The notes: generated by a model not told the origin, from the letters alone. A stretch of 54,140 nt of DNA from Chloroflexota bacterium (GCA_031373765.1 JANMNF010000071.1:1-54140), one strand, 5' to 3'; shown: positions 11,303-45,231, numbered from the stretch's first letter. Translations and numbers: made by a program.

Positions 11303-11323
11303 TAATGTGCTACCTTGTGCTAC
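11303..11323 (+). promoter_or_regulatory. Putative antitoxin operator: direct repeat TGTGCTAC x2 abutting the start codon
   Basis: TGTGCTAC at 11306-11313 and 11316-11323 (10-bp register). TAATGT (11303-11308) could be a -10 box. The ATG follows directly at 11324. Confidence 0.4.
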
Positions 11324-12015: not shown

Positions 12016-12025
12016 GGGCGCAGGC

Positions 12026-15115: not shown

Positions 15116-15170
15116 TTGACGCGACAACTGGGCACGTGCTAGGTTACTGCAATCGGTTGCGCACGGTCAA
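15116..15170. promoter_or_regulatory. Bidirectional promoter with LacI-type operator (site D)
   Basis: Plus strand: TTGACG (15116-15121), 18 nt, TAGGTT (15140-15145), then operator CTGCAATCGGTTGCGCA (15147-15163). Minus strand: TTGACC (15170-15165), 18 nt that are the operator itself, then TAACCT (15146-15141). Confidence 0.65.
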
Positions 15171-26874: not shown

Positions 26875-26895
26875 TTCGTGCAAGCCCCTTCCCAG

Positions 26896-26944
26896 TGCGC
26901 AACCGATTGCAGGGACGGTAGCATCCGGACCAGACGGGCGTCAA
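26896..26944 (-). promoter_or_regulatory. Internal promoter with LacI-type operator (site A) upstream of the aminotransferase gene
   Basis: Minus strand: TTGACG (26944-26939), 18 nt, TACCGT (26920-26915), 2 nt, then operator CTGCAATCGGTTGCGCA (26912-26896). The ATG follows at 26874. Confidence 0.6.
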
Positions 26945-27855: not shown

Positions 27856-28799
27856 GCCGACCTCCTCGTCGTCGTGTCCTGGAGCTCGAGTCTGGCTCTG
27901 TCCGCGATTCGGGCCGCCGTGAGCCCGTGCTTCTCGAGCAGGAATTCATTGGGAGCCGATTCGCCCCAGCAATCCTCAAGTCCGATCCGGACGAGGCGCC
28001 TGGGCAGATGGGCTGTCAGGATTTCGGCGATCAGACCACCAAGGCCGCCGATGACCGAGTGTTCCTCCACGCTCACCACGAGGCTCGAAGGGTCGATGGC
28101 CGCGACGATCGTCTCGACATCGACGGGCTTGATCGAGGGGACATGGAGGACGCCGGCAGACACGCCGGAGGACTCCAGGATGACGGCAGCCTCCAGGCAA
28201 CGCGACGTCTGTGGGCCGGTCGATATCAGCAATACGTCCGTCCCTTCCCGGAGTTGATAAACACGGCCCGGTTCAAACCGATACGTGCTGTCGAACAACT
28301 CGGGCGCCGGGTCCCGCGTCAATCGAAGGTAGACGGGACCATCGAAGTCGGTTGCCCAGCGGGTCATCGCCGCGCACTCGACCTCATCGGCCGGTGCGAG
28401 GACCGTGAGCCCGGGCATCGCCCGCATGATCGCCAGGTCCTGAATGTCCTGATGCGTCTTCCCGGTGAGCCCGGTCAACAACCCTCCATAGCCGGCACCG
28501 ACCTTGACGTTGGCATGCGGCTGCGCCACGAGCAGACGGATCTGGTCGAGCGCGCGATGGGTCAGGAAGACCGCGAACGACGACAGCCAGGGGACATAGC
28601 CCATCGACGCCAGCCCGGCCGCTACTCCGACCATGTTCTGCTCGGCTATCCCCATCTGGAGGAAGCGCTCGGGATGCCGTCGGGCGAAGATGTCCGCCTT
28701 GGTCGACGTGGCAAGGTCTCCGTCGAGCACGAGGATGTCCGAATTCGTATCGCCGAGCTCAGTGAGCGTCTCGCCCCAGACCTCGCGCTGCGATCTCAC
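27852..28799 (-). CDS. Transketolase, C-terminal (pyrimidine-binding) subunit
   Basis: GTG 28799 overlaps the upstream stop (GTGA). FLQMGIAEQNMVGVAAGLA...GKTHQDIQDLAIMRAMPG. 315 aa. Confidence 0.85.
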   Translation of the reverse strand: MRSQREVWGETLTELGDTNSDILVLDGDLATSTKADIFARRHPERFLQMGIAEQNMVGVAAGLASMGYVPWLSSFAVFLTHRALDQIRLLVAQPHANVKVGAGYGGLLTGLTGKTHQDIQDLAIMRAMPGLTVLAPADEVECAAMTRWATDFDGPVYLRLTRDPAPELFDSTYRFEPGRVYQLREGTDVLLISTGPQTSRCLEAAVILESSGVSAGVLHVPSIKPVDVETIVAAIDPSSLVVSVEEHSVIGGLGGLIAEILTAHLPRRLVRIGLEDCWGESAPNEFLLEKHGLTAARIADRARLELQDTTTRRSA

Positions 28800-29689
28800 T
28801 CGGGGCCGCCTGGGGCATCGATGTCCAGCTCGAGGCGGGCAGCCTCCAACTCGTCGGAGGTCGGGACGCGAGCGTGCCAACCATGCTGACCCTCGGTGAA
28901 GGACAGGCCTCGCCCCTTGATCGTCCGTGCCAAAATCGCCGTCGGCCGACTGTCCGGGGTCGCCTCGGCCGCCGCTGCGCACGCGCCGATGATGGCGCCG
29001 AAATCGTGGCCGTCGATTTCGATCACCCGCCAGCCGGATCCCTCGAACATGGCGCGCAGCATGCCTCCAGGGAATGGCTCACTGCGGTCACCGCGAGCAC
29101 CGGGCTCGTCCTGGAGCGACCAGCCGAATTGTTGGAGGCCGTTGTCATCGACGATCACAATCAGGTGGCCCAGTCGATAGCGAGCAGCCACAAGCGCTGA
29201 CTCCCAGACCATTCCCTCCTGACACTCGCCGTCACCAAGCATCACGTAGGTGTGGAAGTCACGACCTCGGAGCCGTGCCCCGAGTGCGATCCCGACCCCC
29301 ACCGCAAGGCCCTGCCCGAGCGATCCGGTGGACGCGTCGAGTCCCGGCAGGCGGGTCATGTCCGGATGGCCCTGCAGCCGCGAGTCACCTTTGTCGAACG
29401 TGGCTAGCTCCTCAATCGGGAAATAGCCGCGTTGAGCCATCACCGCGTACAGACCCACGGCCGAGTGGCCTTTCGACAGGATGAACCGGTCGCGGTCGGC
29501 CCAATCGGGATCCTCGGCGCGGATTTCCAGCACCCGGAAGTACAGAGCGACCAGCAACTCCATCGCCGACATCGGCCCGCCGACATGGCCGGCCCCACTT
29601 CCGGTCACCGTACGCATCACGAGCCAGCGACCCAGTCGCGCCCGAGCCTCGAGGTCGGCGTGCGGAGAGGGCTCGCTCGCCTTCGTCAC
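28796..29689 (-). CDS. Transketolase, N-terminal (ThDP-binding) subunit
   Basis: GTG 29689 overlaps the iolD stop (GTGA). GHVGGPMSAMEL...SKGHSAVGLYA...GSLGQGL...LGDGECQEGMVWE. 297 aa. Confidence 0.85.
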   Translation of the reverse strand: MTKASEPSPHADLEARARLGRWLVMRTVTGSGAGHVGGPMSAMELLVALYFRVLEIRAEDPDWADRDRFILSKGHSAVGLYAVMAQRGYFPIEELATFDKGDSRLQGHPDMTRLPGLDASTGSLGQGLAVGVGIALGARLRGRDFHTYVMLGDGECQEGMVWESALVAARYRLGHLIVIVDDNGLQQFGWSLQDEPGARGDRSEPFPGGMLRAMFEGSGWRVIEIDGHDFGAIIGACAAAAEATPDSRPTAILARTIKGRGLSFTEGQHGWHARVPTSDELEAARLELDIDAPGGPE

Positions 29690-31566
29690 CCGAGTCGCTG
29701 CCGGGAACGTGCCTGGTCGTACCCGTCGCGCGCCGCCCGGATCCCCGGCTGGGCGCTCACCTCGGCTGCGGGAACGTCCCACCATCCCTCGAAGCCGGGA
29801 ACGCGCTGCTCCGGATCGACAGGCACGACGATGACCGTGACTCGATCGGCCCGTTCGGCCTCGGCGAGCGCGGCATGCAATTCGGCAGCCGTGCGGGCGA
29901 AGATGGCCAGGGCGCCCATCGCCTCCGCGTGCTGCCGAAAGTCCACTGGCACGTACGGCCCTGTGAGGCGGTTGCGGGCCTTGTCGCGGAAGCGAAGGTC
30001 GTTCCCGAAGTCGGGCACGCCGACCGAGCGCGCGAGGCCCGTGATGCACCCGAATCCGTGGTTGTCGAGGAGGACGATGGTGAATTTCAGGCCCTCCGCG
30101 ACCGCTGTCACGATTTCCGAGTTCATCATCAGGTACGACCCGTCACCGACGATCACGGCCACCCGTCGCTCGGGTTCCGCAAACGCCACGCCGAGCCCTG
30201 CGGCGACCTCGTAACCCATGCATGAGTAGCCGTACTCCACGTGGTACGACTTCGGGTCCTCAGCGCGCCACAGTTTGAGTAGGTCACCGGGGAGGCTCCC
30301 GGCGGCGCAGATCACCGTGGCCTTGCCTCCGAGGGCGTCGTTGACGATGCCGATCACCTCGGCCTGACCGAGATCCGCGTCCTTCGGGCCTTCCGCCCGG
30401 AGGGCCGTCACGATGCCGTCCCACTCCACCTTGAGCTGCCCGATCCGCGCGCGGAATGCCTCGTTTGTGCCTCGATAGCCCGCGGCATCGAGTGCGGTCG
30501 AGAGTGCGGCGAGGGCCTCGCGCGCATCGGCGACAAGCGGGATCGCCCGCAGCTTGTGGGCGTCCATGGGCGTGACGTTGACCCCGACGAACTTGACGTC
30601 GGCGTGCTGGAACGTGGTTCTCGACGACGTGACAAAGTCGCCCATTCGGGTACCAACACACAGGACCAGATCTGCTTCGCGGGCAAGGTGATTCGCGGCC
30701 AGGCCCCCATTCGCGCCGATCGGACCCACCATCATCGGATGGTTCCAGGGCAGGGCGCCCTTCCCCGCCTGCGTCTCGGCAACCGGGATGTTGAACCGCG
30801 ACGCAAGGGCGTCGAGTTCATGGGTCGCCTCCGAGTAGATGGTGCCGCCACCGGTGATGATCACCGGCGTCTTCGCTCGCATCAGAAGCTGAACCACCTC
30901 GGCGACGACCGAAGGTTCCGGAACCGGCCTGCGAACCCTCCAGATCCGACGCTCGAAGAACGATTCGGGCCAGTCGAACGCCTCGCTCTGGACGTCCTCC
31001 GGCAGCGACACGGTCACGGCGCCGGTCTCTGCCGGGTCGGTCAGCACGCGGAATGCCTCGGGTAGGCTGGCGATCAGTTGGTCGGGACGTGAAATCCGGT
31101 CGAAGAACCGGGACACTGGCCGGAATGCGTCACTCGCGCTGACATCGTGCTCGCTTGGATGCTCGACCTGTTGCAGGACGGGATCCGAGGACCGGTTGGC
31201 GAAGTAGTCGCTCGGAAGGAGCAGGACGGGGACGCGGTTGACGGTCGCTGCAGCGGCGCCCGTGATCATGTTTGTGGCGCCGGGACCAATCGACGACGTG
31301 CAGGCGAAGGTCTGGAGACGGTTCCGATGGCGCGCGTACGCCGCAGCAATGTGGACCTGCCCCTGCTCGTTCTGGGGTCGGTAGTACGGCATCTCCTCCG
31401 CGTCGCCGAGCTCCTCGAGGGCCTGCCCGAGGCCGGCGACATTGCCGTGTCCGAAAATCCCCCAGACGCCGGCAATGAAGCGCTGTTGCCGGTCGTCACG
31501 CTCCACGTACTGCTTGGCCAGGAACCGGACGACGGCCTGGCCGGTGGTCAGTCGAACAGTCGTCAT
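29686..31566 (-). CDS. iolD: IolD paralog 2: ThDP-dependent trihydroxycyclohexane-1,2-dione acylhydrolase
   Basis: VRLTTGQAVVRFL...IFGHGNVAGLGQALEE...GPGATNMITGAA...VGDGSYLM. 626 aa. Confidence 0.85.
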   Translation of the reverse strand: MTTVRLTTGQAVVRFLAKQYVERDDRQQRFIAGVWGIFGHGNVAGLGQALEELGDAEEMPYYRPQNEQGQVHIAAAYARHRNRLQTFACTSSIGPGATNMITGAAAATVNRVPVLLLPSDYFANRSSDPVLQQVEHPSEHDVSASDAFRPVSRFFDRISRPDQLIASLPEAFRVLTDPAETGAVTVSLPEDVQSEAFDWPESFFERRIWRVRRPVPEPSVVAEVVQLLMRAKTPVIITGGGTIYSEATHELDALASRFNIPVAETQAGKGALPWNHPMMVGPIGANGGLAANHLAREADLVLCVGTRMGDFVTSSRTTFQHADVKFVGVNVTPMDAHKLRAIPLVADAREALAALSTALDAAGYRGTNEAFRARIGQLKVEWDGIVTALRAEGPKDADLGQAEVIGIVNDALGGKATVICAAGSLPGDLLKLWRAEDPKSYHVEYGYSCMGYEVAAGLGVAFAEPERRVAVIVGDGSYLMMNSEIVTAVAEGLKFTIVLLDNHGFGCITGLARSVGVPDFGNDLRFRDKARNRLTGPYVPVDFRQHAEAMGALAIFARTAAELHAALAEAERADRVTVIVVPVDPEQRVPGFEGWWDVPAAEVSAQPGIRAARDGYDQARSRQRLG

Positions 31567-32663
31567 CGAGTTCCTCCCCGCAACGTGTCTGGATTCGGAA
31601 GCATCACATCGTCCACCGTTCTGACCAGATCCCAGTACGAGGCGATGAACCCGCGAAGCGTACGGACCGTCGCGCCATACGAATCGAACTCATTCGGGGC
31701 GAGCCCGTCCTCGTCATAGGCGCGCCGGAAGTCGGGAAGCCGGTCAAGAAGTTCATCGACGAGTCGAAGGTCGACAGGTTCGTCAAAGCGCGGCCGGACC
31801 TCGACACGCGACCCATTGAAGCGACGCTGCCAAACCGGCGGAATCGTCAGGATGATGTCGCCTCCGATCACCTCGGACCAGTGAAGATGGTGGCGATACG
31901 CCGCGGCCAGGAGGCGGGTCCGATACCCGCGCGCTCGATAGATCGGCGCCGCCTTCTTGAGAACAGCGATGCCAGCACGGTCGAGGGCGCCGGGGTCGAC
32001 GATGATGTTGTCCCGCTCGGCAACGACCTTCATCCAGTCGTCGAGCCTGCCAACCATCAGCGTGCAAACAGGGCTCATCGTGCTGACGTCGTGGCCGGCT
32101 GCGACACGTCGACGGAGCCCCGCTTCAACGGCTTCGCCGACGGCGAGGGCTTGACTGAGGGTGAAGCTGACGGTCGCGTTGATCGAGACGCCCGCGGCCG
32201 TGGCTTCCTCGATCGCCGTGATCCCCGCTAGCGTCGCCGGGAACTTGACCTGCATGTTCGGAGCCAATTTCTGGAACCGAAGGCCCTGCTCCAGCATGCG
32301 CTCAGCAGACCCGTGGAAGGTCGGATTGGTCTGAATCGATAGGCGGCCTTTGAGGCCGCGCTCACGATCGAAAATCGGCTCCAGCAGTGCCGCGGCACCC
32401 GCTGCCATCGTTTCGATCAACCACCAGGCGATCTCGACGTCGGTCGCGGACCGTTTGGCCGCCTGGAGGGCCAGGATCCTCGGATGCCAGACGTCCCACT
32501 CGCTACGTAGGACTTCGCCCACGATGGTCGGATTGGACGTCGCGCCGACGCCACCATGGTCGATCGCGTACTTCAGATCCGCCAGAGAACACGAGTCGTT
32601 CCAGAAGTCGGTCGGTGTCGTGCGCACCATTCGGGCAAGCGGGCTTTCCGTGCTCACATCCAT
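31563..32663 (-). CDS. Transaldolase-family protein
   Basis: ATG 32663 is preceded by GGAGGGG. GATSNPTI, RLSIQTNP, and VKFPAT with the Schiff-base lysine. 366 aa, the long actinobacterial type. Confidence 0.8.
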   Translation of the reverse strand: MDVSTESPLARMVRTTPTDFWNDSCSLADLKYAIDHGGVGATSNPTIVGEVLRSEWDVWHPRILALQAAKRSATDVEIAWWLIETMAAGAAALLEPIFDRERGLKGRLSIQTNPTFHGSAERMLEQGLRFQKLAPNMQVKFPATLAGITAIEEATAAGVSINATVSFTLSQALAVGEAVEAGLRRRVAAGHDVSTMSPVCTLMVGRLDDWMKVVAERDNIIVDPGALDRAGIAVLKKAAPIYRARGYRTRLLAAAYRHHLHWSEVIGGDIILTIPPVWQRRFNGSRVEVRPRFDEPVDLRLVDELLDRLPDFRRAYDEDGLAPNEFDSYGATVRTLRGFIASYWDLVRTVDDVMLPNPDTLRGGTR

Positions 32664-32706
32664 GCAGCCCCTCCGAACCAGGTGCCCCGGCCGTCGCTGA
32701 GTCGAC

Positions 32707-32755
32707 TTGCGCAACCGATTGCAGAACGGTAGCATCGGCCAAAGGCGCACGTCAA
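32707..32755. promoter_or_regulatory. Bidirectional promoter with LacI-type operator (site B)
   Basis: Plus strand: TTGCGC (32707-32712), 17 nt, TAGCAT (32730-32735). Minus strand: TTGACG (32755-32750), 18 nt, TACCGT (32731-32726). The operator TGCGCAACCGATTGCAG lies at 32708-32724. The two -10 boxes overlap by 2 bp (ACGGTAGCAT). Confidence 0.65.
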
Positions 32756-32798
32756 CAGATCCTCTCGGCGCCGACTTGCCCAGAGTCATGGAGGTCAG

Positions 32799-34004
32799 AT
32801 GGAGACCCGCGGTCGCCTCCCGGATCTCCGGATCGCGATGATTGGCGCCGGGACGATGGCTCGAGCTCACAGCGCGGCCCTGTCCAATATCGGATCGCTC
32901 TATCCGGCGCTCAGGGCCAGGGTGCGGCTCGTGGTTGTCGCGGACGTCAACGCATCACTGGCCGCCGACCTGGGTGCCCGCTACGGCTATGAGCGGGTGG
33001 AGCCGAACTGGCAAGTCGCCGTGTCGGCGGCCGACGTGGATCTGGTCGTCGCCTGCTTGCCGCCGATCCTGAACCGTCCGGTCATCTTGGCGGCGGCCGC
33101 CGCCGGCAAGCACATCGTGTCCGAGAAGCCGCTGGCCGAGACGGCCGAGATTGCGGCGGAACTCCTTGCCGCCTGCCAGGCCGCGGGCGTGTTCCACGGC
33201 CTCGGACTTGGTTATCGCTGGTCGCCGGCGGTCCGCGCGATCCGAGAATTGATCGCCCGTGGCGATCTCGGCGAGATCCGCAGCATGCGCGGGTCGTTCA
33301 TGCTCGACTACGGTTCGGACCCTGACGTGCCTCTCGTCTGGCGATTCCGGCGGGAACTGTCCGGCGGCGGCCTGGCCATCGACACGGGCTACCACCTCGT
33401 TGACTGCGGCCGGTTCCTGGTCGGGGAGATCGAGTCGGTCCAGGCTCTGACGTCAACGTTCATCGCCGAGCGACCGCTGCCCGGATCCGATGCGATCGGA
33501 AACACCGGGGGCCCCGGCAAGGACTCAGCCGAGCGGACGATGGGGACCGTTGACGTCGAGGATGCCGCAGCCGCGATCGTCAGCTACGCAGGTGGGGCCT
33601 ACGGCGTGCTCGAAACCAGCCGCGTCGCCATCGGCAAGCGCGTCTCGCTCCAATTGGAGGTCTTCGGGTCACTTGGATCCGCTGATTGGGATCTCGAGCG
33701 GCCCGATGAATTCCGGGTCTGTTTGCCTGGGGACCCGGGGACCTTTGGTTATCGGCGAGTCCTGGTCAACCCGGGTCATCCTGGGGCGGCCGCGCTGCTG
33801 ATTGGCGGCGCGGACGGCACGTCGATCGGGTGGCTCGGACAGGAGTGCGCCATGTGGGCTGAGTATGTCGCCGCGATCTGTGAGGGCCGCCGTGGGCGTG
33901 CCGACTTCGACGACGGTGTCCGAGTCAACGCGGTGATCGATGCGCTCTATGCGTCGGCAGCGAGTGGCGTTCGTACGCCGGTGGTTCTGCCGTCCGGGTT
34001 CTGA
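32799..34004 (+). CDS. Gfo/Idh/MocA-family oxidoreductase
   Basis: IAMIGAGTMARAH Rossmann motif and HIVSEKPLA. 401 aa. Confidence 0.8.
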   Translation: METRGRLPDLRIAMIGAGTMARAHSAALSNIGSLYPALRARVRLVVVADVNASLAADLGARYGYERVEPNWQVAVSAADVDLVVACLPPILNRPVILAAAAAGKHIVSEKPLAETAEIAAELLAACQAAGVFHGLGLGYRWSPAVRAIRELIARGDLGEIRSMRGSFMLDYGSDPDVPLVWRFRRELSGGGLAIDTGYHLVDCGRFLVGEIESVQALTSTFIAERPLPGSDAIGNTGGPGKDSAERTMGTVDVEDAAAAIVSYAGGAYGVLETSRVAIGKRVSLQLEVFGSLGSADWDLERPDEFRVCLPGDPGTFGYRRVLVNPGHPGAAALLIGGADGTSIGWLGQECAMWAEYVAAICEGRRGRADFDDGVRVNAVIDALYASAASGVRTPVVLPSGF

Positions 34005-36155: not shown

Positions 36156-36184
36156 TTGCGCAACCGATTGCAGGGCGGTAGGAT
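36156..36184 (+). promoter_or_regulatory. Promoter with LacI-type operator (site C)
   Basis: TTGCGC (36156-36161), 17 nt, TAGGAT (36179-36184). Operator TGCGCAACCGATTGCAG at 36157-36173. GGAG (36208-36211) lies 8 nt before GTG 36220. Confidence 0.6.
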
Positions 36185-36219: not shown

Positions 36220-38826
36220 GTGAACGTTTCAGGCGGCCCGGCGACTGCTCTGGCCCGCCCGATCCTGCTTTCCAACGCCTGGAATGCCTCCGATTCGGAC
36301 CTGGCCGTCCGTCTCGACCCGCTCTATCGGCAGGCGCTCGAGCGCGTGCCGGAGGGCGATCAGGTCTTCCGCGGAATTCCGTTCCACCTCGGTTCACGTC
36401 AGCTCGGACGGCGCTGGCTCCTGGTCGATCGCGAACACATCATCGATCTTCGGGGCCTTGGGCCAGCCAGCCATCTGGTCATCGCGCACTTCTCCGATAG
36501 CTGGCGTGATTCTGCCGGCACGCGACCGGCTGGCATGCCGGTTGGCTGGGTAATGCCGGCCGGCGAGACGCTCGCACGGTATGAACTTATCGGCAGGGAC
36601 GGCCGAAGCCAGAGTTTCGATATCAGACGAAGGTTCGAGATCAATGACGGGATCATCGGCTGGGGCTTTCTCCCGTTCGCTGCCGTCGGGCACCTGCCGG
36701 ACGAGGTCGTAGATTGGCGCGGACCGCATCCCCGCCAGGGACCAGGCCGCTACGCTTCCGCCGGGCAGGCAGGGCCGCTGACCATGCTGCCCGGAGCTTG
36801 GGGCCCGGCCCAGACCGGCGTCGGCGATCATGTGCCCGCGGCGGATGACGACATTACGTACTGGTTGCACGCGATCCCTATCGACGTCACAACCGAGCTT
36901 GCCGAGCTTCGCGTCGCCCCGCTCGGCGATGGGAGGCCGGGGATGGCCGTCGTCGTTGCCGGGCTGACGCTGTTTGCCGGCTCGGCGAGCCCACTCAACA
37001 TCGGACCGCGCCGCCAGATCCTGGTCCAGGGGTTTGGTGAGGGCCTCCCGAGCGTGGACCTCGGCATCACGATTGCTTCACGCTCGCCCGAGCGACCCTT
37101 GGTGGAGCCGCAGTCCGAAACTCCGATTGGATGGGGTCGCGCAGGCCGACGGGGCGGCGATCAGGCCGCCGCGGACCGACCCGGCCGCGTCGTCGACATC
37201 GCAGTTGCACCGGATGCCGTGGTGCGGTTGGGAACCTGGGATCTGCCGGTCGCGCTCCTTGATGAGCGAGCAGTCAGCCCGGACGGCCGGATCGTGATCG
37301 AGCCACTGCCACCGCGCGACATTCGGGTCGAGGTGACCGTCACGGACGGGTCGACCGGCGAGCCAACTCCGGCGAGGGTTCGATTCGTCGCCGCGGACGG
37401 ACGCTATCTCCCGCCACTCGGCCATCGCGAGGAAATCAACCCGGGGATCTTCGAGGATTCCGGGGCGGATCTCATCCTCGGCGGGGACGCCTATGCCTAT
37501 GTTTCTGGCGTGTTCGAGATCGACCTACCGCCCGGGGCGGTCGAGATCGAGGTCGTCAAAGGCTTCGATCATCGGCCCGCCCGCACCGCCCTGATCGTGG
37601 ACGCTGCGATACGGCGCCTGAACATTCCGCTTGAGCGCCCGATCGACCTTCGCCCGGCGGGCTGGCAGACGGCCGATCCTCATGTCCACTTCATCTCGCC
37701 GTCCACCGCCTTGCTCCAGGCCGCCGCTGAGGACGTGGCGTTCGTCCACCTCCTCGCCACCCAATGGGGCGACCAGTACACGACGGTCAACGATCTCCCA
37801 TGGGGCTCCTCCACAGATCCCGCCGGTCGACATACGGTCATCGTGGGAACCGAAAATCGATCGAACATGCTCGGCCATCTCGGTCTGCTTGGAGCCCGTC
37901 GCCCGGTGCTCTCCATGTCAGCCGGCGGTGCGCCGGAGGGGCGGATCGGCGGCGAACTGACGGAGCTCCTCGCGGACTGGGCAGACCGCTGTCATGCCGA
38001 GGGCGGATTGGTCGTGGCTGCCCATTTCCCGCTGCCTTATGCGGAGATCGCGACCGACATCGTCACCGGTCGAATCGATGGGGTCGAGATGCAATGCTTT
38101 GCGCCCGGTCTCGACAACCCGTCCATTCTCGAGTGGTACCGGTTCCTCAACTGCGGCTACCGGTTGCCGGTCCTGGGCGGGACGGACAAGATGTCGGCCG
38201 AAGTACCGGTGGGCGCTATACGGACCTATGCGCACCTCGATCCCAATGCGCCGCCGACGTTCGATTCTTGGTCAGCGGCGGTGCGGGCGGGCCGTACATT
38301 CGCAACATCAGGTCCGATCATTGAGATGACCGTTGATGGGCACAGCCCCGGCGACGTGCTGTCACTCCCAGCGACCGGTGGACATCTCGAGGTCCTCGTT
38401 CGTGCTCGGTCGGCACAGCCACTGATCAGCGCCGTCGAAGTCGTGGTCAACGGGCGGGTCGTAGCGGTCGAGGAATCGGCGAGTTCGAGCGACGACCTCA
38501 CTGTCACGACACTGGTCGACATCCGGGACGGCGCGTGGATCGCGGGCCGGTCCCGGAGCAAGCACGAGATCCACTCCGCGTTCAACTCGAGCATGGCTTC
38601 CCACACCTCGCCGGTCTACGTTGAGGTTCAGGATCGCCCCCTCCTCAACGAAGGTGACGCCGGGATCATCCTCGACATCATCGACGGGACGCTGGGATGG
38701 GTCCGGGACATGGCTGCCGTCGGCCGGCCGCATGACCGGGCACGGATGGTGAGCCTCATCGAAGACAGTGCCGCACTGCTCAAGGGTCGTCTCAAGCATC
38801 ACCGCCGGGAGGGTCGTCCGACATGA
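36220..38826 (+). CDS. Large (868 aa) uncharacterised protein with a metal-dependent-hydrolase-like C-terminal half
   Basis: Long ORF with non-repetitive composition. The N-terminal ~430 aa have no motif I recognise. The C-terminal half contains ADPHVHF (HxH-type metal site), VVAAHFP and LGGTDKMS, reminiscent of the PHP / CehA-McbA / amidohydrolase folds. Confidence 0.6.
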   Translation: MNVSGGPATALARPILLSNAWNASDSDLAVRLDPLYRQALERVPEGDQVFRGIPFHLGSRQLGRRWLLVDREHIIDLRGLGPASHLVIAHFSDSWRDSAGTRPAGMPVGWVMPAGETLARYELIGRDGRSQSFDIRRRFEINDGIIGWGFLPFAAVGHLPDEVVDWRGPHPRQGPGRYASAGQAGPLTMLPGAWGPAQTGVGDHVPAADDDITYWLHAIPIDVTTELAELRVAPLGDGRPGMAVVVAGLTLFAGSASPLNIGPRRQILVQGFGEGLPSVDLGITIASRSPERPLVEPQSETPIGWGRAGRRGGDQAAADRPGRVVDIAVAPDAVVRLGTWDLPVALLDERAVSPDGRIVIEPLPPRDIRVEVTVTDGSTGEPTPARVRFVAADGRYLPPLGHREEINPGIFEDSGADLILGGDAYAYVSGVFEIDLPPGAVEIEVVKGFDHRPARTALIVDAAIRRLNIPLERPIDLRPAGWQTADPHVHFISPSTALLQAAAEDVAFVHLLATQWGDQYTTVNDLPWGSSTDPAGRHTVIVGTENRSNMLGHLGLLGARRPVLSMSAGGAPEGRIGGELTELLADWADRCHAEGGLVVAAHFPLPYAEIATDIVTGRIDGVEMQCFAPGLDNPSILEWYRFLNCGYRLPVLGGTDKMSAEVPVGAIRTYAHLDPNAPPTFDSWSAAVRAGRTFATSGPIIEMTVDGHSPGDVLSLPATGGHLEVLVRARSAQPLISAVEVVVNGRVVAVEESASSSDDLTVTTLVDIRDGAWIAGRSRSKHEIHSAFNSSMASHTSPVYVEVQDRPLLNEGDAGIILDIIDGTLGWVRDMAAVGRPHDRARMVSLIEDSAALLKGRLKHHRREGRPT

Positions 38827-39701
38827 AGATCGCACTTGATCCATACATGCTTCGCGGTCTGCCGTTCGGAGATGTCTGCAGGATCGCGGCGGATATCGGG
38901 TACGACGCGATCGAGCTGTCACCACGCTCGGACTTCATCCCATTCTTCACCCACCCGCGCGCCGACCGCAGCCGAGTCGCGGAGTTTCGCACGGCCGTCC
39001 GCGAAACAGGCATCGAGATCTCGTCGGTCCTGCCGCTCTATCGCTGGTCCAGCCCGGACGAGGACGAGCGTCTGGCAGCGGTCCGTTACTGGAAGCGGGC
39101 CATCCACCTGACGGTCGAGCTCGGTGTCACGGTGATGAACTCGGAGTTCAACGGCCGGCCCGAGGCGGCAGCGGCCAGCGAGGGGCAGTTCTGGAAGTCG
39201 CTCGAGGAACTCCTTCCGATGTTCAATCGAGAGGGGATACAACTCAATCTCGAAGCGCACCCGGACGATTTCGTGGAGCGCAACGACGAAGCCGTCGACC
39301 TGGTCCGCGCCATCGACTCACCGGACGTCGGCTATCTCTTCTGTGCGCCCCATACCTACCACCTGGGCGATGACATCGGGACGATGATCGAATACGCCGC
39401 TCCGGTCCTTCGGCAGGTGCACATCGCCGACGTCTTCAACCATCGCGCCTCATCCGGCCTGCGCTACATCGTCAACCCGCCCGGGTCTATGGCGCGAGTG
39501 CATCAGCATCTCGACATCGGTCAGGGCGAAGTGGACTGGGACTCCTGTTTCGCGGCACTTCGGAGGGTCCGTTTCGACGGCATCCTGACCAGCTGTGTCT
39601 TCGCCTGGGAGGAACGGGCTGTCGAATCGTCCCGCTTCATGCTCGAGAAGATCCGGCACTACCTCGACGCGCATCCGAACACTGAGGGCAATGAAACGTG
39701 A
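38823..39701 (+). CDS. Sugar phosphate isomerase/epimerase (xylose-isomerase-like TIM barrel)
   Basis: YDAIELSP...NLEAHPDDF...HTYHLGDD...QVHIAD pattern. ATGA overlap with the upstream gene. Confidence 0.75.
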   Translation: MKIALDPYMLRGLPFGDVCRIAADIGYDAIELSPRSDFIPFFTHPRADRSRVAEFRTAVRETGIEISSVLPLYRWSSPDEDERLAAVRYWKRAIHLTVELGVTVMNSEFNGRPEAAAASEGQFWKSLEELLPMFNREGIQLNLEAHPDDFVERNDEAVDLVRAIDSPDVGYLFCAPHTYHLGDDIGTMIEYAAPVLRQVHIADVFNHRASSGLRYIVNPPGSMARVHQHLDIGQGEVDWDSCFAALRRVRFDGILTSCVFAWEERAVESSRFMLEKIRHYLDAHPNTEGNET

Positions 39702-40729
39702 AAACCAAGCGTGTAGGGATCGGCCTCGTGGGTGCCGGGCGCATGGGCTCCATCCACGGGAGGCTCGTGAATTCGAGCGTGCCCCAGGCAACGCTCGTCG
39801 GCATCGCGGACCTGAATGTGGATGCGGGCAATCGTCTCGCGGCGCAGGTCGGCGATCCGCCGGTGTTCGCCTCGCTTGAAGAACTGCTCGAGACGCCGGG
39901 TCTCGATGCCGTCCTGATTGCCACGTCGTCAAGCCAGCACCTGGCGGCGATCGGGCTTGCCGCGAGTGCCGGCAAGGACATCCTGTGCGAGAAGCCCATC
40001 GCGCTGACGCTTGCGGATACGGACGCTGCGATTGCCGCCGCGGCCGAGGCCGGCGTGCGCCTGCAGGTGGGGTTCATGCGCCGCTGGGAGCCCGACTACG
40101 TCCGCGCCAAGGCTCGTCTGGCGTCAGGCTCGCTTGGGCGGCCGATGCTGTTCAAGTCACTCCAGTTCGACCCCGAGCCGCCGCCACTCACGTTCGCCGA
40201 TCCGTCGGTCAGCGGCGGGATCATGACGGACATGGGAATCCACGAATTCGACCTGGCTCGATGGCTCATGGACGACGAGGTTGTCGAAGTCCACGCCTAC
40301 GGCTCGACGTACGCTCATCCAACTCTCGCTTCGGTAGGTGACGTGGACAGCGCAGTCGTCAATCTTCGCTTCCGTAGCGGCGCGACCGGATCGGTTGAGC
40401 TGGCTCGGAACACGACGTACGGGGAGGATGTCCGTACCGAGGTGCTGGCGATGAATGGCTCAATCTGGGTTGGGCTTCTGTCCATGACTCAGGGTGCATC
40501 GAGCGGAGGCAACGTGACCGACGCGATCGCGGTCGACGCCCTCGATACCGCCATTCCTCGCTTCGAGCGTGGATTGGCAGCACAAGCGCGCGGATTCGTG
40601 TCGGCGATCCTGGCCGATCGCCCGGTGGCGGTGACGGGCGGAGACGGCAGGGCTGCTCTCGAGATCGCCGTAGCGGCCACTCGATCGCTCCACGAGGGCC
40701 GTCCAGTCGAGGTGCAACGGGAAGCATGA
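39698..40729 (+). CDS. Gfo/Idh/MocA oxidoreductase, inositol 2-dehydrogenase-like (IolG-like)
   Basis: GIGLVGAGRMGSIH, ILCEKPIAL, VGFMRRWEPDY. GTGA overlap with the upstream gene. Confidence 0.8.
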   Translation: MKTKRVGIGLVGAGRMGSIHGRLVNSSVPQATLVGIADLNVDAGNRLAAQVGDPPVFASLEELLETPGLDAVLIATSSSQHLAAIGLAASAGKDILCEKPIALTLADTDAAIAAAAEAGVRLQVGFMRRWEPDYVRAKARLASGSLGRPMLFKSLQFDPEPPPLTFADPSVSGGIMTDMGIHEFDLARWLMDDEVVEVHAYGSTYAHPTLASVGDVDSAVVNLRFRSGATGSVELARNTTYGEDVRTEVLAMNGSIWVGLLSMTQGASSGGNVTDAIAVDALDTAIPRFERGLAAQARGFVSAILADRPVAVTGGDGRAALEIAVAATRSLHEGRPVEVQREA

Positions 40730-41742
40730 CGACCGGGACCGCTCGAGGTCTTCTCGGACCGCGGCCCGGTCCCGGGGAGCCAATCCGCATCGGGTTCCAG
40801 GTGTGGGGGCAGTCAATCAGCTGGGCGGATCTGATGGCGACGGGCCCGCGGATCGAAGGTTTAGGCTTTGCGAGCCTCTTTGCGAATGACCACTTCATGC
40901 CCATCCTCGGGGATGGCGATGGCCCAGTGGTCGGCCCTCCTGGTCCAGTGTTCGAGGGCTGGATGACGCTCGTCGGCTGGGCCGGCCTTACAAACCGGAT
41001 CCCTCTCGGCGTCCTCGTATCGGGTGCGGGCTATCGAAACCTTGGGCTGACGGTGAAGATGGCGACCTCGCTCGATCACGCGAGCAACGGCCGCGGGATG
41101 CTCGGTCTTGGCGCGGGTTGGCACGAACCAGAACATCGGGCATTCGGCTACGAAGTCGTGCCAATCGGCGAGAGGATCAGTCGGCTGAATGAAGCGTCCC
41201 AGGTCGCCCGCGGTCTGCTCCACGGGAAGGCGGTCACCTTCGAGGGGTCGTGGGTGACGGCCCGCGACCTGCGCAACCTGCCGCCACCGCTCCAACCTCG
41301 TCTTCCGCTCCTCATTGGCGGAAGCGGGGAGCGCCGCACGTTGCGGATCGTTGCCCGAGATGCCGACATCTGGAACGGCGAGGGCGACCCGGCGGTCTAT
41401 GCCCGCAAGAACGCAATCCTGGACGGTCACTGTGCCGAGATCGGGCGGGACCCGGCGGAAATTCGCAGGACCGTCGGAGTGCCGCCGATCTGCATTCGCG
41501 ACACAAGGCTTGGCGCAGTTGAGGCCCTGACGAAGATCCTTGCCGCTCAAGGCGGGACGACCGACGATGCCGGCGGCTGGGCGGCGAGTTCGCCCCTTGC
41601 CGACACCGAGGAGGTCGTGGCGGGTCTCCTTCGCGCCTGGCACCTTGCTGGTGCCGAGGAAGCGATCGCCGACCTGCCGTGGCCTCACGATGACGAGACA
41701 CTCGAGCGCCTGGCCGGCCCTATGCAGGCCCGCCTGGCCTGA
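40726..41742 (+). CDS. LLM-class (luciferase-like) F420-dependent oxidoreductase
   Basis: FASLFANDHF...RIPLGVLVSGAGYRN...LDHASNGRGMLGLGAGW...LLIGGSGERRTLRIVA is typical of the LLM/F420-dependent family. ATGA overlap with the upstream gene. Confidence 0.75.
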   Translation: MTTGTARGLLGPRPGPGEPIRIGFQVWGQSISWADLMATGPRIEGLGFASLFANDHFMPILGDGDGPVVGPPGPVFEGWMTLVGWAGLTNRIPLGVLVSGAGYRNLGLTVKMATSLDHASNGRGMLGLGAGWHEPEHRAFGYEVVPIGERISRLNEASQVARGLLHGKAVTFEGSWVTARDLRNLPPPLQPRLPLLIGGSGERRTLRIVARDADIWNGEGDPAVYARKNAILDGHCAEIGRDPAEIRRTVGVPPICIRDTRLGAVEALTKILAAQGGTTDDAGGWAASSPLADTEEVVAGLLRAWHLAGAEEAIADLPWPHDDETLERLAGPMQARLA

Positions 41743-41924: not shown

Positions 41925-42293
41925 ATGCGAACCGTCAATAGCCACCGAACCCACCTCGTGATCAGCGCAGCCCTCGTCGTCCTGGTGGTCGCCGGATGTG
42001 GTCGCCATGCCGAAGTTCCCAACGCCGGATCGCCGACATCGCCGTCAACCGTCGATGCGACATCCGCGCCACAACTCCCGGCGGGCGCTCTCGTCGGCGC
42101 AACCGGAGAGCCGGTCGCAACCGACGAACCAGCTACGACGGCCGAACCGTCCGAGCCGGCCGCGACCGCCCAGCCCGGAACCACCCCCGTACCCACGCCG
42201 GACTTCGCCTCCATCGAGGCGCTGCTGTCCGGGATCGATGGCGATCTTGGCGATGACGCCAGCGCCGCCTCATATGAAGGGAGCCCTCAGTGA
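41925..42293 (+). CDS. Pro/Thr/Ala-rich lipoprotein
   Basis: Signal peptide with lipobox VVAGC and a low-complexity mature part. Confidence 0.5.
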   Translation: MRTVNSHRTHLVISAALVVLVVAGCGRHAEVPNAGSPTSPSTVDATSAPQLPAGALVGATGEPVATDEPATTAEPSEPAATAQPGTTPVPTPDFASIEALLSGIDGDLGDDASAASYEGSPQ

Positions 42294-43081
42294 ACAAGCA
42301 CATCACTCGTTTGGCCGGCACGTTTGCCGTCCTCGCCCTGACCGTCTCGGTGGCCATGCCGGCGCTCGCGTCCGCCGCGTCGTCGGGTCGGGTCAGCGAC
42401 CGCTCGGCAGCGCCCCTCAGCGCGGAGACCGACGCCGCGCGTTGCCGGCCCGATTGGCAGGCTGCCAAAGACGACCGAACCCTGGCGAAGGTGCAGGCGG
42501 TCGGATTCTGCGAGATCGACCGACGCCTCGTGACCATCAACCGGCTTCAGGCGCTGGTCCGCGCCTCGGATGGCCTGACCGATGCCCACGCAACGGCCCT
42601 CACCCGGATCCTCGACCATTCGGAGATCGGCCTCAAGGCGCTGCGTCGCGAGATCGCGGCCGATACCACTGTCGCTTCGGCAACGGAGGATGTCCGCCGG
42701 ATCTTCACCGACTTCCGGATCTACGCCCTCGTGACGCGACAGGTCGCGCTTGTTCGGGCCGACGATCGCGTGGACACGGCAGTTAATCGGCTCACCCATG
42801 CCTCCGATCAACTCGCCGCGGCAATCGCCCGGGCTGCCGGCAACGGCAAGGACGTCACGGTGGCGCAGGGTCACCTCGACGCGATGATCGCGGCAATCGG
42901 TGAGGCTCGGGCCGAGGTGGCCGGTGACGCCGGCGCCGTGCTGGAACAGACCCCCGCAACCTGGAACGCCGGCACGGCCAAGCCGATCCTCGACGCCGCA
43001 CGCGCCTCGATCGCCGCCGCGCGATCCGATCTTCGGACTGCCATGACCGAGGCCCGGGCCGTCCTCGCGGCCCTGCGCTGA
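42290..43081 (+). CDS. Secreted alpha-helical protein of unknown function
   Basis: Signal peptide ...AMPALASA. Ala/Arg/Asp-rich helical body. GTGA overlap with the lipoprotein gene. Confidence 0.5.
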   Translation: MNKHITRLAGTFAVLALTVSVAMPALASAASSGRVSDRSAAPLSAETDAARCRPDWQAAKDDRTLAKVQAVGFCEIDRRLVTINRLQALVRASDGLTDAHATALTRILDHSEIGLKALRREIAADTTVASATEDVRRIFTDFRIYALVTRQVALVRADDRVDTAVNRLTHASDQLAAAIARAAGNGKDVTVAQGHLDAMIAAIGEARAEVAGDAGAVLEQTPATWNAGTAKPILDAARASIAAARSDLRTAMTEARAVLAALR

Positions 43082-43166
43082 TCCGCAGCTCAATTCGTCT
43101 CGCTCCAGCCCCGTGCCCGTTGACCGAGTGTCGGCGGGCACGTCGTCGCGCGTAGACTCCCGTTCG

Positions 43167-43812
<646 letters not shown>

Positions 43813-43841
<29 letters not shown>

Positions 43842-45231
43842 TCGGGTCCCCTCGCGGATTGCCGCGGCGTTCATTGCCGTCGGGCTGGTGGCGGTACTGG
43901 CGGTCGGAGCCGGACTCTTTGTCAGCCTCCGGTCGCTCCACCAGGACGCCACGGCTTCCAGCCTCGGTGACATCGCCCAGCCGATCGTGACGCGGGCCCG
44001 TGCCCTTGGCGCGGCGGACCTCCGGGCCGCGATTACCAACCTGCGATCCGACCTGCGGCCGGAACTCGGGCTCTATGCCGTCGTCGGCGAGCGCCTCGTC
44101 ACGGCCGATGGAGCGGTGCCGATCCTGACCGCCCGGTCGCTTTCGGTGCCCGTGGATCTCGCCGTGGGGGCGTCGGCCGGGGGCACCGTGGTCGCCACGG
44201 ACGGCACTCGCCTCATCTACTCGGCGACAGTCCTGCGCCGGGAGGGCGCCGCGGTCGGGCGCGTCCTCGTCGTCCTCACCGCGCCCGACAACTCGGGCGC
44301 TCTCGCGGTCCGGGACCTCCTGCGCGTACTGCCTGCCGTGGCCATCGTCATCGTGATCATCGTTGCGCCGATCGCCTGGTTCCTCTCCCGCTCGATCACG
44401 CGACCCCTTCGTCGCCTGGCCGATGCGACGACGGCCCTTCCGGTGGCCGGCGCATCCGCGGAGACCGTTGAAGCCGAAGGGCCGCGGGAAGTCCGAGATC
44501 TGACGGAACGGTTCAACGAGATGACCGCCGCCCTCGATTCGGTCCGACGCGAAGAGCGCGAACTGCTGGCGAACATCCGTCATGACCTCAAGACGCCACT
44601 CACCGTGGTGTCCGGGTTCGCCGAGGCGCTTCGGGACGGCACCGCGACGGGGCCTGGCGTCCCCCGTGCGGCCGCAGCGATTGCCCAGGAAGCGTCCCGG
44701 ATGGAAGCCCTGATCGAGGATCTGCGATCCGTTGACGAGGCCGGGACCGCCGGCCTAACGCTGCGGCCGGGATCGATCGATCCGGCCGTGCTCGTCATGG
44801 ATGCGGTCGCGCGATTCGGTCCACGCGCCTCAGGTGCCGCCATCGATCTCCGGGCCGACGCGGATCCGGGCATGGCGCTCGTCGCGGATCGGGCAGCGAT
44901 CGAGCGGGTCCTCGGCAATCTCATCGAGAATGCCCTGTCCGTCGTGCCTTCCGGCGGCCACATCCTCGTCGAGGCGCGCCGTGCCGCCGATGGATCGGTG
45001 GCATTCCGGGCGAGCGACGATGGACCTGGGTTCCCGCCAGGCTCGCTCGAGCGTGTCTTCGATCGGTTCTATCGGGCGGATCCTGCGAGGACAGGTCCCG
45101 GGACTGGCCTTGGGCTCTCGATCGTCCGCGCCCTTGCTCGCGCCCACGGGGGTGAGGCCGTCGCGGAGAACCTGGCCCCGTCCGGCGCCCGCGTGACGGT
45201 CACACTGCCGGGAGTCCCAACGCCCGTCTGA
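43813..45231 (+). CDS. Sensor histidine kinase (two TM helices, HAMP, HisKA, HATPase_c)
   Basis: H-box NIRHDLKTPLT, N-box LIENAL, G-boxes DDGPGF and GTGLGLSIV. The start is TTG 43813 or GTG 43834 (the latter overlaps the regulator stop). Confidence 0.85.

Follow-up and report, generated by a model that had tools for sequence, protein, structure and literature searches.

The canonical iol pathway comprises IolG, IolE, IolD, IolB, IolC, IolJ and IolA, and the role of IolH is unknown. The moc catabolic gene clusters encode enzymes of the GFO/IDH/MocA and TIM-barrel (MocC-like) types whose substrate is an aminocyclitol; we know of no CehA/McbA-type hydrolase in such clusters. Members of the PHP superfamily are mainly phosphoesterases. 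Limnocylindria are an abundant class of Chloroflexota in soil and freshwater. MosB, a scyllo-inosose:glutamate aminotransferase (PMC6668481), demonstrates that bacteria carry out this transamination. CehA (Rhizobium sp. AC100, Sphingobium sp. CFD-1) and McbA (Pseudomonas sp. C5pp, XWY-1) are hydrolases of carbaryl and carbofuran, and the domain of McbA has been described as polymerase/histidinol-phosphatase-like (PMC8292978). Histidines H467 and H504 of McbA and H453 and H495 of CehA are reported, on the basis of mutagenesis, to be functionally important (PMC8292978).

The window analysed here is a stretch of 54,140 nucleotides from a Chloroflexota bacterium (GCA_031373765.1, JANMNF010000071.1). 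It contains a four-gene operon (36220-41742), led by the gene of an 868-aa protein, here termed BIG868 (Table 1). An earlier reading made from the sequence alone had described the four ORFs as coupled and the first of them as the largest gene of the island. Both descriptions are borne out by the ORF calls; the successive junctions ATGA, GTGA and ATGA indicate translational coupling, and the GC3 values of 0.75-0.79 are typical for coding sequence in this window. The assignments of the three downstream genes likewise agree with profile matches (AP_endonuc_2, GFO/IDH/MocA and Bac_luciferase, respectively).

Table 1. Positions of the genes, predicted domains and operator copies discussed in the text, counted from the first nucleotide of the window.
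Feature	Position	Strand	Remarks
Operator copy	15146-15164	-	between IolE-like TIM barrel and iolA-like aldehyde dehydrogenase
LacI-family repressor, presumed operator binder	24557-25624	-	PF00356, PF13377
DegT/DnrJ/EryC1/StrS-family aminotransferase	25642-26883	-	PF01041, E = 2e-82
Operator copy	26895-26913	+	at DegT aminotransferase gene
iolD (one of two copies)	29686-31566	-	TIGR04377, 888 bits vs cut-off 715
Operator copy	32707-32725	+	between transaldolase-family gene (31563-32870, -) and GFO gene (32799-34004, +)
LacI-type operator TTGCGCAACCGATTGCAGG	36156-36174	+	46 bp before start codon of 868-aa gene
Predicted 868-aa hydrolase gene (BIG868)	36220-38826	+	GTG start, first gene of operon
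N-terminal family-specific beta-sandwich, residues ~10-290	36220-37119	+	no relative in Pfam or PDB sequences
Second beta-sandwich, residues ~323-470, weakly CarboxypepD_reg-like	37186-37629	+	AF2 strands; PF13620, E = 0.052
PHP-like alpha/beta barrel	37660-38319	+	NF038032, residues 481-802
C-terminal beta-sandwich (~700-803) and helical hairpin (811-863)	38317-38808	+	AF2, pLDDT > 90
IolH-like xylose-isomerase-type TIM barrel, 292 aa	38823-39701	+	PF01261, E = 7e-50
IolG-like GFO/IDH/MocA dehydrogenase, 343 aa	39698-40729	+	best NCBIfam match IolG, TIGR04380
Luciferase-like (LLM) oxidoreductase, 338 aa	40726-41742	+	PF00296 (Bac_luciferase), E = 6e-34

BIG868 belongs, as a multidomain protein, to the CehA/McbA-type (PHP-like) metallohydrolases. 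The NCBIfam model of this family (CehA/McbA metallohydrolase, NF038032) is matched over its entire length (positions 1-315 of 315) with a score of 140 bits, the cut-off being 80, and McbA and CehA share about 26% identity with residues 357-707. The sequence-only reading had related the C-terminal half to PHP, CehA/McbA or amidohydrolase enzymes on the basis of the motifs ADPHVHF (residue 485), AAHFP (600) and GGTDKMS (653). All three motifs are present, and the relation to CehA/McbA stands, but a search of the protein for the amidohydrolase superfamily in Pfam (Amidohydro_1/3) returned no match. The presumed metal-binding or catalytic residues are D486, H488, H490, E504, E545, R547, H553, H602, D620, E623 and D656. 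The DxHxH motif (D486, H488, H490) is invariant in 11/11 aligned sequences; together with E504, R547, H553, H602, D620, Y640, D656, R668 and H795 it stays invariant over an identity range of 20-90% that takes in the carbaryl hydrolases, and the invariant columns of the barrel hold across homologues of 30-55% identity plus McbA/CehA. In the alignment, H553 and H602 fall on the aforementioned H467/H504 of McbA and H453/H495 of CehA. Another histidine, H477 of McbA, is not kept and aligns with V563, and the published residues H313/H315 of CehA did not fall on histidines in the annotated CehA used. As judged from the alignment, the set DxHxH...E...H...H...D...H, the metal site in the carbaryl-hydrolase relatives, is kept in BIG868.

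In the AF2 model of BIG868 (pLDDT 78.7, pTM 0.74), the barrel region (residues 482-700) displays an alternation of strands and helices, with pLDDT mostly 80-95. The C-terminal sandwich that follows carries the conserved residues W773, R777 and H795, with W773 and H795 invariant in McbA/CehA as well. The second sandwich, preceding the barrel, displays a conserved loop RYLPPxGHR...ED with P399, H402 and D417; across the wide family the first of these is kept without exception and the other two almost without exception. Homology to McbA/CehA begins at about residue 357 (tblastn), inside this second sandwich. Residues 1-350 are a family-specific beta-sandwich region that is absent from CehA/McbA. 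For this region no relative was found in Pfam or among PDB sequences. The profile of the N-terminal domain aligns with McbA residues 1-293 at an hhalign probability of 0.2%, so that the domain is absent from McbA, and is found in a Bradyrhizobium homologue at 95.6%. It holds 74 invariant positions among 21 orthologues and carries a conserved insertion of low model confidence (residues ~139-207). Foldseek displays only weak and insignificant matches of this domain to jelly-roll or CBM-type sandwiches (E >= 4e-3, TM <= 0.25). The N-terminal beta-sandwich of ~300 residues defines a distinct subfamily of CehA/McbA-type hydrolases. With the whole chain, Foldseek matches are driven by the beta-sandwiches and include weak GH2-like multidomain matches; PHP structures are not among the top 50, and no solved or predicted structural relative in these searches offers a clue to a ligand. 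An uncharacterised N-terminal part, put at ~430 residues previously, is thus retained with a different limit, namely residues 1-350, since residues 357-470 match CehA/McbA; the latter also carry conserved residues. As no signal peptide was seen on inspection, the protein is presumed to be cytoplasmic.

The exact operator copy described ahead of the BIG868 gene is confirmed, its 17-nt core TGCGCAACCGATTGCAG having four exact sites in the window (15146-, 26895+, 32707+, 36156+) versus 0.01 expected. The operator contains the imperfect palindrome GCAAC-CG-ATTGC, and three of the copies in the window have the flank CGGTAG(G/C)ATC in common. A possible promoter may overlap the copy at 36156 (TTGCGC, 17 nt, TAGGAT at 36179-36184); a promoter scan called no promoter. 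Membership of the operon in a cyclitol regulon, for which position behind an operator had been the argument, gains further support from a 15-mer operator core that lies 60-100 bp upstream of the orthologues in ~38 fetched independent loci and is kept between proteins only 60-65% identical. A paralogue has a variant operator upstream. In 20/29 orthologous loci, iolD is immediately upstream of and divergent from the hydrolase gene, with the operator in the common intergenic region, and a LacI-family repressor gene is present in 24/29. In Limnocylindrales-type Chloroflexota, the operator is predicted to control, besides the operon headed by the hydrolase gene, iolB and iolD, the genes of the repressor and of the DegT aminotransferase, and an ABC importer of the PotABCD type. 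From the conservation of the operator we infer co-regulation of the operon with the iol genes.

BIG868 has 412 full-length homologues at 59-90% identity. The fixed architecture of ~850 aa is found in hundreds of relatives, which are mostly from Limnocylindrales MAGs, with others from cultured Bradyrhizobium and Mesorhizobium. Gene neighbourhoods were counted in 29 orthologous (type-1) loci and, separately, in 12 type-2 loci. The neighbourhood is conserved: DegT is found in 28/29 type-1 loci (within 10 kb), the TIM barrel in 26/29 (directly 3' of the hydrolase) and iolD in 20/29, over a range of 60-90% protein identity. The complete four-gene order is confined to the closest relatives, and the widely kept unit is the hydrolase with the TIM barrel only. 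This constant partner is 78-93% identical between the loci, and 50-54% identical over its full length to a Ralstonia 'protein iolH' and to genes located in the iol clusters of rhizobia and Agrobacterium; many of its orthologues are called IolH by IMG. NCBIfam gives weak epimerase matches only, no close solved structure was found, and homologues are common in iol clusters of the usual kind that have no such hydrolase. Its former designation as an isomerase may be refined to that of an IolH-like protein.

The other two genes of the operon, encoding the IolG-like dehydrogenase and an LLM oxidoreductase, accompany the hydrolase variably. The dehydrogenase scores 305.2 bits with TIGR04380, below the equivalog cut-off of 355, and follows the hydrolase and TIM-barrel pair co-directionally only in the eight closest loci. 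The LLM gene is located within 10 kb of the hydrolase in 11/29 type-1 and 9/12 type-2 loci, and its best matches to F420-type subfamilies are both below cut-off (TIGR03560, 199.2 of 231.4 bits; TIGR03856, 177.4 of 243.7 bits). F420-dependent redox tailoring, as previously suggested, does not hold as a conserved feature.

The DegT aminotransferase, overlooked by the earlier reading, is the most specific co-occurring gene. Its best solved relative is the 8-amino-Kdo transaminase KdnA (5k8b, 272 bits), and its PDB matches include scyllo-inosose transaminases of the DegT family. A 38%-identical homologue of BIG868 outside any iol cluster again adjoins DegT aminotransferases, together with amide hydrolases (Amidohydro_1, DMFase-like). 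This recurrence, along with the presence of DegT in 28/29 loci, suggests an amino-substituted substrate. Next to the Mesorhizobium homologue are a gene of the glutamine-synthetase family and a homologous importer of PotABC type, and the binding protein of the importer in the window is PotD/PotF-like, resembling polyamine binders. In one group of loci (L002-type), iolD/B/C/J and DegT are present and no IolG-type dehydrogenase is called within ~10 kb, which would be explained by entry via transamination.

Based on this dataset, we tentatively favour, short of calling it probable, the reading that BIG868 acts in the cytoplasm, where it would hydrolyse an imported conjugate of a cyclitol, probably an inosamine substituted on its nitrogen, and so make it available for transamination and then for the iol pathway. 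The earlier proposal that a cyclitol is released hydrolytically from a conjugate is plausible. BIG868 would catalyse the first, unmasking step on the imported derivative, in which water activated by the metal would attack an acyl group, a carbamoyl group or a comparable substituent. The most plausible position of this substituent is the nitrogen of an aminocyclitol (inosamine). Transamination of the freed amine by the DegT enzyme would next yield an inosose, which the IolE-like and IolH-like TIM barrels, IolD and IolB would take into central metabolism. The IolG-like dehydrogenase and the LLM oxidoreductase may add optional accessory redox steps in the closest relatives, probably widening the usable range of stereoisomers or derivatives.

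Several observations count against this reading. To our knowledge, no N-acyl- or N-carbamoyl-inosamine is an abundant natural compound of soil. With phosphoesterases predominating in the PHP superfamily, two hydrolases of xenobiotic carbamates that are 26% identical to BIG868 are a weak basis for the chemistry, and KdnA uses a sugar-acid aldehyde rather than an inosose. Distant family members are located near GH88, KduI, KduD, KdgK and Eda genes (uronate context) and others near sulfatases, so that the family is functionally diverse; the occurrence of the TIM barrel in iol clusters without the hydrolase likewise counts against it.

The main rival, which we consider unlikely, is a phosphoesterase that acts, ahead of the iol enzymes, on an imported phosphate of inositol or of an inosamine, for example inositol monophosphate, glycerophosphoinositol or a different inositol phosphodiester, by removing the phosphate or cleaving the diester. 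Phosphoester chemistry is usual for PHP-type domains such as the PHP-like catalytic domain of BIG868, inositol phosphates are abundant in soil, and the family of the LLM partner includes the F420-dependent glucose-6-phosphate dehydrogenase, a sugar-phosphate enzyme. The invariant basic residues R547, K657, R668 and R777 could bind an anion; however, R547, R668 and R777 are equally kept in McbA, a hydrolase of neutral carbamates, with CehA keeping R547 and R668 too, and hence are no evidence of a phosphate site. Moreover, the closest relatives with a known activity hydrolyse carbamate esters and are not phosphatases, the importer's binding protein looks like polyamine binders, and the near-obligatory DegT aminotransferase would be left unexplained.

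It appears quite improbable that BIG868 processes a glycosyl- or uronosyl-cyclitol or other sugar conjugate, with the jelly-roll-like N-terminal domain as a carbohydrate-binding module. Such a role would agree with the CBM-type and GH2-like fold matches and with the uronate and sulfatase neighbourhoods of distant homologues, but every one of these fold matches is insignificant (TM <= 0.25), GH88 or lyase genes are absent from the Limnocylindrales loci, and we know of no PHP-type enzyme that acts as a glycosidase. That the gene is a passenger, encoding an esterase or carbamate hydrolase for general detoxification, as CehA/McbA are, with no cyclitol role, is very improbable: the only characterised relatives do break down xenobiotic or plant carbamates (PMC8292978) and other bacteria have a complete iol pathway without the hydrolase, but iolD, DegT and IolH keep their synteny in 20-28 of 29 loci, the operator is kept upstream of orthologues, translation of the gene is coupled to that of one of iol type, and it has neither signal peptide nor mobile-element context, unlike cehA and mcbA.

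Returning to the unmasking of an N-substituted inosamine, a wider proposal, possible although rather doubtful, is that the hydrolase, the DegT aminotransferase and the PotD-like importer form an undescribed catabolic route for aminocyclitols or N-substituted conjugates that feeds IolD/IolB and is widespread in Limnocylindria. If true, the CehA/McbA family would with BIG868 gain its first member that has a physiological rather than a xenobiotic substrate, and this substrate would be recognised by a new domain. In soil Chloroflexota, the predicted joint control of this large, conserved but unstudied hydrolase with iol genes and an aminotransferase points to an undescribed breakdown of a modified, probably amino-substituted, cyclitol.

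Compared with CehA/McbA, BIG868 (residues ~357-803) has a homologous beta-sandwich, PHP-like barrel and C-terminal sandwich, and keeps DxHxH, E504, R547, H553, H602, D620, Y640, D656, R668, W773 and H795. On the other hand, identity is only 20-26%, the N-terminal ~350 residues are unrelated, and there is neither a signal peptide nor a transposon context. The residues H402, Q515, E545/N546 and K657 are specific to the BIG868 subfamily, with tyrosine at 657 in the carbaryl hydrolases, which are encoded in a xenobiotic island rather than in a conserved catabolic regulon. With PHP phosphoesterases (histidinol phosphatase, YcdX and TrpH/pAp phosphatase types) BIG868 presumably has in common a His/Asp/Glu metal site initiated by HxH and an alpha/beta barrel, a likeness that is based on the NCBIfam naming and on the description of McbA cited in PMC8292978. 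It differs from them in matching no Pfam family, PHP (PF02811) included (whole protein at E <= 0.01, residues 471-710 at E <= 10), and no PDB sequence, the relationship being visible through NF038032 only. The terminal D-x-H of these enzymes is replaced by D656-K-M, and H795 from the following sandwich domain may supply the replacement histidine.

The rhizopine (scyllo-inosamine) metabolism of Sinorhizobium resembles the locus in its PLP aminotransferase (MosB), which interconverts inosose and inosamine (PMC6668481). The GFO/IDH/MocA and TIM-barrel enzymes of the moc genes are a further resemblance. The window has no moc-type Rieske or ferredoxin genes, and the rhizobial plasmid matches examined in comparing its DegT protein with MosB are from biosynthetic contexts. 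With the canonical iol pathway the locus shares IolD (two copies) and IolB, all scoring above their equivalog cut-offs, as well as IolE-, IolG- and IolH-like genes and a single repressor regulon. It differs, within the window, by transketolase and transaldolase-family genes in place of iolC and iolJ. Additional to the pathway are a large predicted metallohydrolase, a DegT aminotransferase and a PotD-like importer, joined by an LLM oxidoreductase in some genomes.

The first gene of the operon encodes an 868-residue protein whose catalytic half is of an already known kind. Pfam gave no match for the whole protein, and four sub-regions searched at E <= 10 yielded nothing usable. The NCBIfam model NF038032 (CehA/McbA family metallohydrolase domain) covers residues 481–802 end to end, with 140 bits against a cut-off of 80, and the NCBI pipeline names relatives of the protein "CehA/McbA family metallohydrolase". 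A PDB sequence search with the single protein and two family profiles returned no meaningful relative. The domains listed in the table below were read from an AlphaFold2 model computed with 47 homologues (pLDDT 78.7, pTM 0.74).

Features of the 868-aa protein, the operon and the loci carrying the paralogue
Feature	Position	Strand	Remark	Basis
Beta-rich domain	residues ~12-290		broken by low-confidence segment 148-206	AF2 model
Beta-sandwich	residues ~323-470		low-confidence loop 405-420	AF2 model
Alternating strand-helix barrel	residues 482-700			AF2 model
Beta-sandwich	residues 700-803			AF2 model
Helical hairpin	residues 811-863			AF2 model
868-aa gene	36220-38826	+	GTG start	ORF
292-aa gene	38823-39701	+		ORF
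343-aa gene	39698-40729	+		ORF
338-aa gene	40726-41742	+		ORF
Paralogue in fetched loci L032, L034, L036, L037, L041, L042, L046, L052, L054, L058	~9880-12600			

Comparison of the whole chain with the PDB by Foldseek gave only weak beta-sandwich and GH2-like matches (TM < 0.15), which we treat as uninformative, and a separate model of residues 1–300 (pLDDT 62) had no better matches than weak jelly-roll ones (E >= 4e-3, TM <= 0.25). With weak matches only, the N-terminal domain is therefore without a recognisable solved relative; a jelly-roll fold was considered and left unassigned, the matches being too weak on a model of pLDDT 62. Residues 148–206 (window 36661–36837) are near-invariant in orthologues (W148, G149, H158, W166-R167-G168, W194, D203, P206), despite a pLDDT of 25–35 in both models. 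This segment may be a lid or interface element that requires a partner or ligand.

The sequence-only reading had described a coupled operon and quoted several motifs of its first product. Both were confirmed: the gene junctions are ATGA, GTGA and ATGA, and the motifs lie at residues 485, 600 and 653. Third-position GC of the four reading frames (0.75–0.79) is the same as in the remaining genes of the window. The 87-bp gap 5' of the 868-aa gene contains TTGCGCAACCGATTGCAGG at 36156–36174. The 17-nt core of TTGCGCAACCGATTGCAGG occurs exactly at window positions 15146 (-), 26895, 32707 and 36156, against a chance expectation of 0.01, and all four copies are intergenic and within the inositol island; TGCGCAACCGATTGCAG is the candidate LacI target of this putative operator. 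A simple promoter and terminator scan called none. Three of the operator copies have in common the arrangement TTGCGC-17 nt-TAG(G/C)AT, which, judged by its sequence, may be a promoter overlapping the operator. In about 38 loci, orthologues of the hydrolase have the exact 15-mer operator core 60–100 bp 5' of the gene, and the paralogue has a variant, TGTGCAACCGTTTGTA, located upstream. The probable co-regulation of the hydrolase with the iol genes rests mainly on this phylogenetic footprint. Directly 3' of the operon (42290–45231 (+)) lie a gene for a 263-aa protein, with no Pfam match and an N-terminus that resembles a signal peptide by inspection, followed by a response regulator paired with a histidine kinase. 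None of the operator copies falls within 42290–45231, and these genes are therefore taken as the end of the island.

Conservation of this setting was followed in 60 loci fetched from species-representative genomes, nearly all of them MAGs of Limnocylindrales or other Chloroflexota, onto which homologues of the island genes were mapped by tblastn. Among the 29 orthologous loci (>= 58% identity, adequate flanks), a DegT-family aminotransferase gene lies within 10 kb of the hydrolase in 28, an IolH-like gene follows immediately 3' in 26, and iolD is divergent and immediately 5' in 20; LacI and IolB are present in 24 loci each. The hydrolase combines a conserved operator with conserved synteny to iolD, DegT and IolH. 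Simpler loci, such as L002, contain iolD, iolB, a PfkB kinase, a DeoC-type aldolase, TIM barrels, an EamA permease, DegT and LacI, and no GFO-type dehydrogenase was called there within about 10 kb. The paralogue (51–57% identity, 12 loci) is divergent from a PotABCD-like ABC importer, with the two directly adjacent in 9 of these loci. Many Limnocylindrales genomes carry such a second copy at 51–57% identity; the window has the first type only.

IolB and both IolD copies of the window exceed their equivalog cut-offs. The iolD paralogues at 16655–18553 (+) and 29686–31566 (-) score 786 and 888 bits against 715; it is the copy at 29686–31566 that shows synteny with the hydrolase and DegT. The window's iolD-iolB operon also includes a split transketolase and a transaldolase/FSA-family gene (27852–29690 (-), 31563–32870 (-)), and loci similar to L002 have iolC (PfkB) and iolJ (DeoC) in their position. 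By analogy with the sulfo-TK and sulfo-TAL pathways, this suggests a putative kinase-independent lower inositol branch; a literature search on such a branch found nothing matching. The closest solved relative of DegT (25642–26883 (-)) is KdnA (5k8b), which scores 272 bits where the next match has about 190. KdnA is the 8-amino-3,8-dideoxy-octulosonate transaminase, whose substrate is a free sugar-acid aldehyde and not a nucleotide sugar.

The 292-aa gene encodes a xylose-isomerase-like TIM barrel (PF01261, E = 7e-50) for which no close solved structure was found; its orthologues are labelled IolH in IMG. Relatives with 50–54% identity are contained in ordinary iol clusters of Aureimonas and Agrobacterium, and further homologues are found on many rhizobial, Sinorhizobium and Ralstonia replicons. 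Neither of these two iol clusters has a large hydrolase nearby, and an obligatory, dedicated hydrolase subunit was accordingly rejected as a role for the TIM barrel. The 343-aa protein is a GFO/IDH/MocA dehydrogenase with IolG as top model (305 bits, cut-off 355), and the 338-aa protein is a luciferase-like oxidoreductase whose top models, all below cut-off (199 versus 231 bits), are F420-type subfamilies. Given these scores, "IolG-like" and "F420-type" are resemblances and not established memberships. The F420-dependent tailoring stressed earlier is not a conserved feature, the LLM gene being present in 11 of the 29 orthologous loci.

A word-indexed search returned 412 homologues, the best 120 of which are full length, 59–90% identical and from Chloroflexota/Limnocylindrales MAGs, named, where at all, "hypothetical protein" or "CehA/McbA family metallohydrolase". 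When residues 1–482 were searched exhaustively, at least 600 cluster representatives (602) were returned. Among the best 150 of these, complete members are nearly all about 820–900 aa long, down to 26% identity, so the architecture is fixed. Members with 30–55% identity keep the catalytic-domain residues and P399, G401, H402 and D417 of the second sandwich. Some homologues are from Acidobacteriota, and two are from cultured rhizobia (Bradyrhizobium sp. 4, WP_247360271.1; Mesorhizobium sp. AR10, WP_258600260.1). One orthologue (64% identity) that shares the operator and the IolH-like neighbour lies on a 6.9-kb contig binned as Verrucomicrobiia (L013, DATLVO010000105.1), which is probably a mis-binning, or else a lateral transfer.

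Judged by the varied contexts of its more distant members, the family is functionally diverse, with transporters, hydrolases and amine-handling enzymes as recurrent neighbours. Neighbours of a 38%-identical homologue are two DegT-type aminotransferases, an Amidohydro_1 protein, dimethylformamidase-like subunits and an ABC importer, with no iol genes at the locus. Next to the Mesorhizobium homologue are a serine hydrolase, a glutamine-synthetase-family gene and a PotABC-type importer whose ATPase shares 46% identity with that of the homologous importer in the window, and one further distant homologue lies among sulfatases. Two distant members from different phyla (L064, 8008–20623; L068, Bradyrhizobium sp. 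4 plasmid p4_1, 6556–15654) both have genes for GH88 (unsaturated glucuronyl hydrolase) and a CoA transferase nearby, and KduI, KduD, KdgK, Eda and an LLM oxidoreductase are additional neighbours of one of them; for that branch, such surroundings hint at a role on uronate conjugates.

Based on this dataset, we tentatively hypothesize that the hydrolase would remove the mask from an imported cyclitol derivative, that the inosamine released would be transaminated to an inosose by DegT, and that the inosose would pass to IolE-, IolD- and IolB-type enzymes. A masked amine in the substrate is suggested by the near-obligatory DegT partner, the PotD-like binding protein of the importer, the loci without an IolG-type dehydrogenase, and the presence of DegT and amidase genes around a distant homologue. 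PDB matches of DegT include DegT-family scyllo-inosose transaminases, a precedent for PLP-dependent inosose/inosamine transamination, as is MosB (PMC6668481). A link of DegT to rhizopine MosB via rhizobial plasmids was dropped, the matches examined being in polysaccharide and NRPS biosynthetic contexts. Literature searches on aminocyclitol catabolism with iolD/iolB, on Limnocylindria and inositol, on IolH function and on the hydrolase family name found nothing relevant. The main alternative, a phosphoesterase acting on inositol or inosamine phosphate, is unlikely; conserved arginines as a phosphate site were rejected as evidence, since the carbaryl hydrolase McbA conserves them just as well, and they do not discriminate between the readings. 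Action on glycoconjugates seems less plausible still, and a passenger esterase, in a gene with this operator and synteny, is very improbable.

New, in comparison with the catalytic half, are the N-terminal domain, the placement of a presumed cytoplasmic enzyme within a regulon, and its close linkage to iol genes and an aminotransferase in a lineage that is abundant and uncultured. A large subfamily of fixed architecture is locked into an inositol regulon, with an aminotransferase, in one major uncultured lineage. To our knowledge, CehA/McbA-type hydrolases are known only as pesticide degraders, and their natural origin is unclear. The substrate of the subfamily, if identified, would provide a natural function for the CehA/McbA family, and might show that inositol catabolism in abundant soil bacteria has a further, new point of entry, by way of aminocyclitols or a different cyclitol conjugate. 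The subfamily may also bear on the role of IolH, and the cultured Bradyrhizobium and Mesorhizobium homologues make the question open to experiment.

The PDB copy searched contains no solved structure of a CehA/McbA-type protein. In tblastn searches of plasmids, residues 357–707 align with McbA of Pseudomonas sp. XWY-1 (26.4% identity, E = 1e-11) and residues 434–712 with CehA of Sphingobium sp. CFD-1 (25.9%). Invariant in the joint alignment are D486, H488, H490, E504, R547, H553, H602, D620, Y640, D656, R668, Y670, W773 and H795; the 868-aa protein is a member of the CehA/McbA-type domain family with a complete set of presumed metal and catalytic residues. H553 and H602 are the aligned counterparts of McbA H467/H504 and CehA H453/H495, histidines reported to be functionally important (PMC8292978). 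In contrast to the carbaryl hydrolases, H402, Q515, E545/N546 and K657 are specific to the subfamily of the 868-aa protein. The N-terminal domain is family-specific as well: the first 350 residues are absent from McbA (hhalign probability 0.2%) and present in the full-length homologue on a Bradyrhizobium plasmid (95.6%).
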